The notes under the pieces: generated by a model | Database searches by the model: none | Seen by the model: the letters and a program-made list of their open reading frames with translations, nothing else | Told to the model about the DNA's origin: nothing | From: Vulcanimicrobiota bacterium | GTDB lineage: Bacteria > Vulcanimicrobiota > Xenobia > Xenobiales > JADMJV01 | Direction of reading: 5' to 3' | DNA: 64,000 bases | Assembly (NCBI GenBank): GCA_050486105.1 | Contig: JBJHCR010000001.1 | Span: 14,510 to 78,509, forward strand | Position numbers and translations under genes: made by a program | In this document: piece by piece, positions 23,044 through 23,216 of the stretch | Layout: every line of letters begins with the position of its first letter | Position numbering within the stretch: position 1 is the first letter of the stretch

Positions 23044-23216
23044 CCTGGAGTAAAGAGGCTGTGCGCCGAATCAACCCACATCGCCAAACTCGCCCTTTTT
23101 CCGCCATGGGAACCGCAAATTCTTGCAAATAGGTCCACTATGAGCTTCAAATTTTCAATTCCCCTGACGAAAAAATTGCTTCGTTTGGACTCGGGGCGAT
23201 TCGGCGCACAGCCTCT
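23044..23216 (+). mobile_element. MITE-like repeat family B, copy A (~173 bp) with 19-bp terminal inverted repeats agaggctgtgcgccgaatc
   Basis: The TIRs are visible at both ends. A second copy, >85% identical and inverted, lies at 40445-40608. Confidence 0.55.

Follow-up and report, generated by a model that had tools for sequence, protein, structure and literature searches.

A 161-bp repeated sequence with 18-bp terminal inverted repeats, very probably a MITE-type transposon, in an uncultured Vulcanimicrobiota bacterium

Two copies of a short repeated sequence, hereafter family B, are present in opposite orientation in the window, i.e. the whole 64-kb stretch of Vulcanimicrobiota DNA analysed here, and are very probably copies of a non-autonomous, MITE-type DNA transposon of 161 bp. 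The initial annotation had proposed a MITE-like element, and its reading agrees with the features found: small size, lack of coding capacity, terminal inverted repeats (TIRs), sharp ends, at least five copies, direct repeats at the ends, intergenic location and a stable hairpin. Elements of this type are described as shorter than 500 bp, with TIRs of 4-30 bp, an AT-rich composition, stem-loop transcripts of high stability and direct repeats that are gradually lost with age (PMC10969869); the element described here measures 161-163 bp and has no coding capacity. The family is a new one of a well-known kind, seen in a single uncultured Vulcanimicrobiota/Eremiobacterota genome and, as a remnant, in a Xenobia MAG.

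The pair was detected by a repeat search of the 64-kb window, in which it is the one long inverted pair, spanning 23051-23216 and 40446-40611 (166 nt, 94% complementary). Alignment and blastn define a shared unit of 163 nt per copy, 23054-23216 on the + strand (copy A) and 40446-40608 on the - strand (copy B), with nine differences, corresponding to 94.5% identity (E = 6e-57 by blastn). The two inverted copies initially annotated are thus real, and the identity given for them, above 85%, is correct but understated. Their placement was also right, except for the start of copy A, which had been set at 23044, 10 nt too far to the left: the true start is 23054, or 23055 if the terminal A is counted with the target duplication. 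A third copy was not found in the window by blastn, even at word size 7. Within the element the two loci share 94.4% identity, and in the 60 nt on each side this falls to 28%, the random level; the pair is therefore not contained within a larger duplication. The coordinates of the two elements and of their ends are as follows.

23055..23215, + strand: copy A of family B, 161 bp, GAGGCTGT...ACAGCCTC
23055-23072 and 23198-23215: TIRs of copy A, 18 bp, perfectly complementary
40447..40607, - strand: copy B of family B, 161 bp, in opposite orientation to copy A
40447-40464 and 40590-40607: TIRs of copy B, with 1 and 2 substitutions
23054-72 (+), 23198-216 (-), 40446-64 (+) and 40590-608 (-): matches to the TIR 19-mer AGAGGCTGTGCGCCGAATC

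When up to three mismatches are allowed, these four matches to the 19-mer are the only ones in the window, against a chance expectation of 0.01, and all of them fall at element ends; in copy A the 19-mer is perfect on both sides. The variants are summarised by AGAGGCTGT(G/A)CG(C/T)CG(A/C)ATC. In its 18-bp form, GAGGCTGTGCGCCGAATC, the TIR lies on both sides of a core which is AT-richer (47% G+C, compared with 56% for the window) and is itself an imperfect palindrome.

The coding capacity of the element was evaluated starting from the short ORF MSFKF(S/A)IPLTKKLLRLDSG, which had been reported in both copies as probably not real. The ORF does occur in both.

23140..23199, + strand: short ORF MSFKFSIPLTKKLLRLDSG..., inside copy A; its equivalent in copy B lies on the - strand and ends at 40463

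In a log-odds model of codon usage, for which 23 confirmed window genes served as the training set, this ORF scores -0.21, against a mean of +0.19 for those genes. The substitution pattern is non-coding as well. Two of the six frames run without stops across the whole of copy A, and in each of them every one of the nine differences alters the encoded amino acid; one, a C to T change in copy B, turns CGA into TGA and terminates the ORF after DSG, whereas the frame of copy A continues past the boundary of the element. The ORF does not, therefore, represent a gene.

When the two stop-free frames were translated and compared with protein databases, three spurious ORFs were retrieved, located on three other NCBI contigs (16,659, 69,521 and 22,820 bp). 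One of them, P0163, spans the whole element and agrees with copy A in 52 of 53 residues; P0165 covers its right half, matching at 25 of 26 residues. The third, P0164, corresponds to a diverged copy, with about 67% identity at the protein level, a two-residue insertion and a frame change. At least five copies of family B are thus known, two in the window and three on the other contigs, three of them being nearly identical. An exhaustive HMMER search over 1.84 billion protein representatives gave no real further matches; two other candidates, P0166 and P0167, were discarded as tandem-repeat junk ORFs.

These results bear on whether the pair could have arisen by segmental duplication or misassembly, or whether MSFKF... 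could be a genuine small protein gene that occurs in two copies. The window shows no more than two copies, and the two frames open across the entire element might be taken to indicate coding; the initial annotation had itself named two copies only, within a larger segmental duplication, as the finding that would go against a mobile element. Neither half of this was observed, since further copies reside on other contigs and identity is random beyond the TIR ends. The uniformly non-synonymous differences, the stop in copy B, the non-coding codon usage and the fact that the protein database returned only other copies of the element likewise make such an explanation extremely improbable.

The TIR sequence was also used to scan public DNA collections: AGAGGCTGTRCGYCGMATC was compared with 185,579 species-representative genomes and with the JGI metagenomes, and GAGGCTGTRCGYCGMATC, which lacks the first A, with IMG/VR. 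Single matches numbered 71 in the species genomes, 74 in the JGI metagenomes and 10 in IMG/VR. The window's own copies were not among the matches, and the three collections therefore do not include the source genome. BLAST comparison and a search for the partner TIR showed that all matches but one are chance hits to a single 18/19-mer; two matches from Eremiobacterota (L068 and L015) fall within a homologous coding region. The exception is contig JBBKWP010000481.1 of a Candidatus Xenobia MAG (L058), where positions 4849-4881 read TAAA/GAGGCT-A-GATTCGGCGCACAGCCTC/TAAA, slashes marking the ends of the element. Here 6 nt from one TIR adjoin the other TIR, which is complete at 18 nt; the resulting 25-bp sequence, enclosed by a perfect 4-bp repeat, is an internally deleted remnant of family B. 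A strong terminator hairpin (AAAAAAGAGAGACGAGCAACGTTGCTCGTCTCTCTTTT) is located at 4790-4845 of the same contig, between convergent genes, and the remnant follows it directly. No match to the element was found by blastn in a plasmid collection, nor to the TIR string in a literature search.

A comparison of the insertion sites for target-site duplications (TSDs), as initially proposed, revealed 4-bp direct repeats, perfect in copy B and conserved at three of four positions in copy A. The flanking sequences are listed below, together with those of the copies outside the window. For the P0163, P0164 and P0165 copies, TSDs derive from back-translated protein and not from DNA.

23051..23054, + strand: left flank of copy A, TAAA, putative TSD, containing the TAA stop at 23051-23053
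23216..23219, + strand: right flank of copy A, TGAA, equal to the left TAAA at 3 of 4 positions
40443..40446, + strand: left flank of copy B, TCTA, one of two 4-bp direct repeats
40608..40611, + strand: right flank of copy B, TCTA, identical to the left repeat at 4 of 4 positions
L058 remnant: TAAA on the left and TAAA on the right, read from sequence
P0163 copy: CCNG on the left and CCNG on the right, by back-translation only
P0165 copy: left flank not seen, TNAA on the right, by back-translation only

Left and right flanks agree at 14 of the 15 determinable positions (P ~4e-8, uncorrected for the few boundaries that could have been chosen). In the few sites available, the targets are AT-rich and follow the 4-bp pattern TNNA, except for one CNNG. 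The 19-bp TIRs initially described are indeed present at all four ends, but 18 bp plus a 4-bp target duplication is the better reading, and the element most likely consists of 161 bp with 18-bp TIRs and a 4-bp TSD. The choice between these boundaries and the alternative, a 19-bp TIR plus 2 bp, depends mainly on P0163. Its codons, ...CCN GGN GGC TGT... and ...AGC CTN CCN GAY..., imply by back-translation the arrangement CCNG/GAGGCTG...CAGCCTC/CCNG, in which the 19th base pair is G...C and not A...T. One CCNG duplication would account for this pair more simply than two simultaneous terminal mutations. The 19th TIR base would appear to be paired because a TNNA or CNNG duplication places complementary bases beside both TIRs.

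Both copies in the window are intergenic, located between co-directional genes and either on a stop codon or directly after one. Copy A lies between two + strand ORFs, 22739-23053 (104 aa) and another starting at 23229, both of coding-like codon usage, and directly follows the TAA stop (23051-23053) of the former; removal of the element would leave the two about 10 nt apart. They are not the halves of one gene split by the insertion, being in different frames, and removal of 165 nt does not join them. Copy B separates a T2SS-F gene (39410-40447) from a + strand gene (40712-41890). The T2SS-F gene had been labelled as GspF-like, in agreement with its Pfam match (PF00482, E = 2e-40), whereas the label of ElaB-repeat gene assigned to 40712-41890 is not supported by Pfam.

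As initially noted, copy B sits on the stop codon of the T2SS-F gene. The TAG at 40445-40447 overlaps the start of the element (40446/40447), being formed by the TA of TCTA and the first G of the element. In the empty site, as reconstructed, the reading is ACT CTC TAG GGA and the same stop is retained; the reconstructed empty-site junctions are ...CTCTCTA/GGGAGCC and ...GGAGTAAA/CTGCGAG. The end of the T2SS-F protein, ...LLQTL*, coincides with the ends of eight homologues (45-54% identity), and the insertion thus lies at the stop codon and causes no truncation. Copies A and B are both probably located within operons.

Family B appears, from its sequence features, to be mobile. A trans-acting transposase of the DDE type, encoded elsewhere in the genome, would bind the TIRs and excise the element, and reinsertion with a 4-bp staggered cut would generate the 4-bp direct repeats. 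In a genome of 56% G+C, TNNA-type sites would be concentrated at stop codons and in the short spacers between genes. The location of copies on or after TAA and TAG stops, in the absence of gene truncation, may be explained because AT-rich targets often contain TAA or TAG. A search for a cognate transposase with matching TIRs, also proposed initially, gave negative results: an autonomous element bearing these TIRs is not present in the window, a Pfam search of 38 window ORFs revealed no transposase, and the scans of genomes, metagenomes and viruses, where the source genome is absent, did not yield a partner transposase either.

The whole family B unit is an imperfect palindrome, with 68% identity to its own reverse complement, and folds into one long hairpin. 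Folding energies are reported for both senses of each copy.

Copy A, + sense: -71.5 kcal/mol, z = -7.6
Copy A, - sense: -92.2 kcal/mol, z = -10.4
Copy B, - strand: -60.9 kcal/mol, z = -5.6
Copy B, + strand: -76.5 kcal/mol, z = -8.9

One sense folds better because of its G.U pairs, which in copy A number seven, compared with none on the other sense. Since both copies lie within probable operons, they would be transcribed, and a long RNA hairpin is expected.

The element might accordingly be a copied structured RNA, acting as a 3'-UTR or intercistronic signal for processing, stability or termination, with the transposon traits being secondary. The very stable hairpins on both strands and the position of both copies within probable operons are consistent with this, and the advantage of one sense by 16-21 kcal/mol, with its seven G.U pairs against none in copy A, is a weak hint of strand-specific constraint. 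However, this asymmetry reaches only P ~0.02, comes from one sequence and could be inherited from a master copy. Copies A and B are oppositely oriented with respect to the flanking + strand genes; none of the nine substitutions is compensatory, and three of the nine break TIR pairs in copy B. Scans around both copies revealed neither a sigma-70-like promoter nor an intrinsic-terminator pattern, such as a terminator-like T-run, inside the element. Rfam gave no match in the window at the gathering threshold, and at a relaxed one its sole match was a meaningless hit to a trypanosomatid snoRNA model (E = 0.39). The flanking duplications and the deleted remnant fit transposition, and not an RNA gene. 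On balance, an RNA element in the first place is considered very unlikely, and the MITE-type transposon is the preferred reading.

The genomic surroundings of the pair were compared with those of related genomes. The window is assigned by its SecA to Vulcanimicrobiota (= Eremiobacterota), and the named relatives are Vulcanimicrobiota, Eremiobacterota and Xenobiia MAGs. The nearest relatives, at only about 80% SecA identity, lack the whole 21-kb block described below, and identity among T2SS-F homologues does not exceed 54%. In three relatives, with about 80% SecA identity, a PIN-like gene is followed by SecA within 160-330 bp, compared with a gap of about 21.5 kb in the window; both family B copies therefore lie inside a lineage-specific block (~21050-42500). 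Neither element family (see below for family A), nor any MITE-like inverted repeats, were found in the syntenic loci of five relatives (L146-L150), and no recognisable transposase or integrase was found in the 21050-42500 block. The block includes the following genes.

24944-28510: enlarged second SecA paralogue, 1188 aa
29755-33486: annexin-domain protein, 1243 aa
36705-37985: Ser/Thr kinase
38013-39413: FHA-BTAD protein
39410-40447: lone T2SS-F protein
21326-22654 (- strand) and 40712-41890: Gly/Ala-rich membrane-type proteins

The block may represent an accessory secretion module. The pair of FHA-BTAD and T2SS-F genes is conserved in a distant relative (L150).

The inverted copies could also be regarded as the arms of a composite transposon or of an invertible segment. 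The 17.2 kb between them carry Uma2, SecA paralogue, annexin-domain, Ser/Thr kinase, FHA-BTAD and T2SS-F genes, i.e. accessory genes bracketed by inverted copies and part of the ~21.5-kb block absent from the three related genomes, and gene cassettes flanked by MITEs have been documented in Acinetobacter (PMC10969869). Against such an arrangement, copy B has its own perfect TCTA/TCTA repeat and was therefore probably inserted alone, while the outer flanks of the pair differ, being TAAA to the left of copy A and TCTA to the right of copy B. The block missing from the relatives (~21.05-42.5 kb) reaches about 2 kb past each copy, the other known copies are solo and on other contigs, and no sign of inversion is seen, as genes inside and outside the pair are mostly on the + strand. 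Arms of a composite or invertible unit are hence judged very improbable. Similarly, it is very improbable that the 163-bp arms serve as handles by which the 17-kb block is flipped or moved, or that the G.U-rich hairpin has been co-opted as an intercistronic RNA processing signal. Solo insertions of a MITE-type element are the favoured explanation for both copies.

IS5 itself has a preference for YTAR targets. Duplications of 4 bp and GA/GG ends are typical of IS5-type elements (ISfinder family descriptions). On these criteria, family B agrees with the IS5 type in its putative 4-bp duplication and GAGG ends, but its targets (TCTA, TAAA/TGAA, CCNG, TAAA and TNAA) do not fit YTAR.

Known bacterial MITEs, such as QMITE2 of Coxiella, MITEAba12, Correia/NEMIS, ERIC and RUP, share with family B small size, TIRs and direct repeats, and also the lack of coding sequence, the AT-richer core, the intergenic location and the stable stem-loop transcript (PMC10969869). 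Rfam, plasmid and literature string searches gave no sequence similarity between family B and described MITE families, and its observed copy number, at least five, is low. Correia in Neisseria and ERIC in Yersinia are likewise hairpin MITEs found at gene 3' ends or between genes, and family B is probably co-transcribed; for elements of this kind, RNase III cutting or altered mRNA stability are possible (PMC10969869). Family B differs from them in having a TSD other than TA and two copies oppositely oriented with respect to transcription.

The degree of divergence varies among copies. Copy A and the P0163 and P0165 copies are nearly identical, suggesting recent amplification, while others seem to be decaying, namely copy B, with nine substitutions of which three fall in the TIRs, the P0164 copy, which carries indels, and the 25-bp Xenobia remnant. 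Family B opens no new mechanism and answers no open question. It may nevertheless be read as a record of recent transposon activity in an uncultured Vulcanimicrobiota/Eremiobacterota lineage, and serves as a marker of gene ends in a candidate phylum about which little is known; its target preference would put insertions on stop codons without damage to genes. The family also yields spurious ORF calls, at least three of which are present in public protein databases.

A second element family (family A), reported close to copy B in the initial annotation, is also real: it is found at 41887-42053, with a 76% identical copy at 58418-58581. Its members are about 165 bp long, with TIRs of about 30 nt starting with GTGCAACGTC and a self reverse-complement identity of about 68%. 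Family A thus resembles family B in size and in forming a hairpin over its whole length, while the TIR sequences are unrelated. The copy at 41887-42053 shares bases with the TAG stop of the gene 40712-41890 and lies in a CTAG...CTAG context, which would be compatible with duplication of TA at a CTAG target (IS630/Tc1-like). Just downstream, at 42077-42105, there is a terminator-like hairpin with a T-run behind it (GAGCTCACTTCGGTGGGCTTTTTT), unlisted by the consensus scanner, and the copy therefore probably lies between the stop codon and the terminator of the gene 40712-41890. No copy of family A was found in any of the retrieved loci.

Other features of the window are reported here. Three Uma2-family (PF05685) putative endonuclease genes are present in the 64 kb, at 23696-24823, 45176-45778 (- strand) and 63198-63746 (- strand); the second is located between SecA and a release-factor gene, where relatives have nothing. 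The ORF 23229-24143 (304 aa) begins 13 nt past copy A. Its first half has coding-like codon usage, its later part is proline-rich with a 38-bp tandem repeat (23858-23933), and just before the frame closes its C-terminus, CSTPSCSNHLWLKLHHIRW, resembles the beginning of an HNH motif. The ORF may be a decayed HNH gene that overlaps the Uma2 ORF or is fused to it.

At the left edge of the lineage-specific block, the region 20540-21220 (- strand) contains a PIN-domain gene (20540-21049) and a short upstream ORF, KSVLIRNLPEAVVSALKKRAAKNNRSLQKELR..., resembling a ribbon-helix-helix antitoxin, and likely encodes a VapBC-type pair. A call of tRNA-Asp(atc) at 52484-52578 lies within a gene for an SLH protein and is apparently a false positive. 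Tandem repeats are found at 9287-9455 (three 54-bp units, 90-92% identical) and at 36197-36334 (two 69-bp units, 93%), the latter inside the - strand ORF 36161-36643. Finally, the left end of the window (58-3186) encodes a protein of 1042 aa, which carries a CHAT (caspase-like) domain at its C-terminus.
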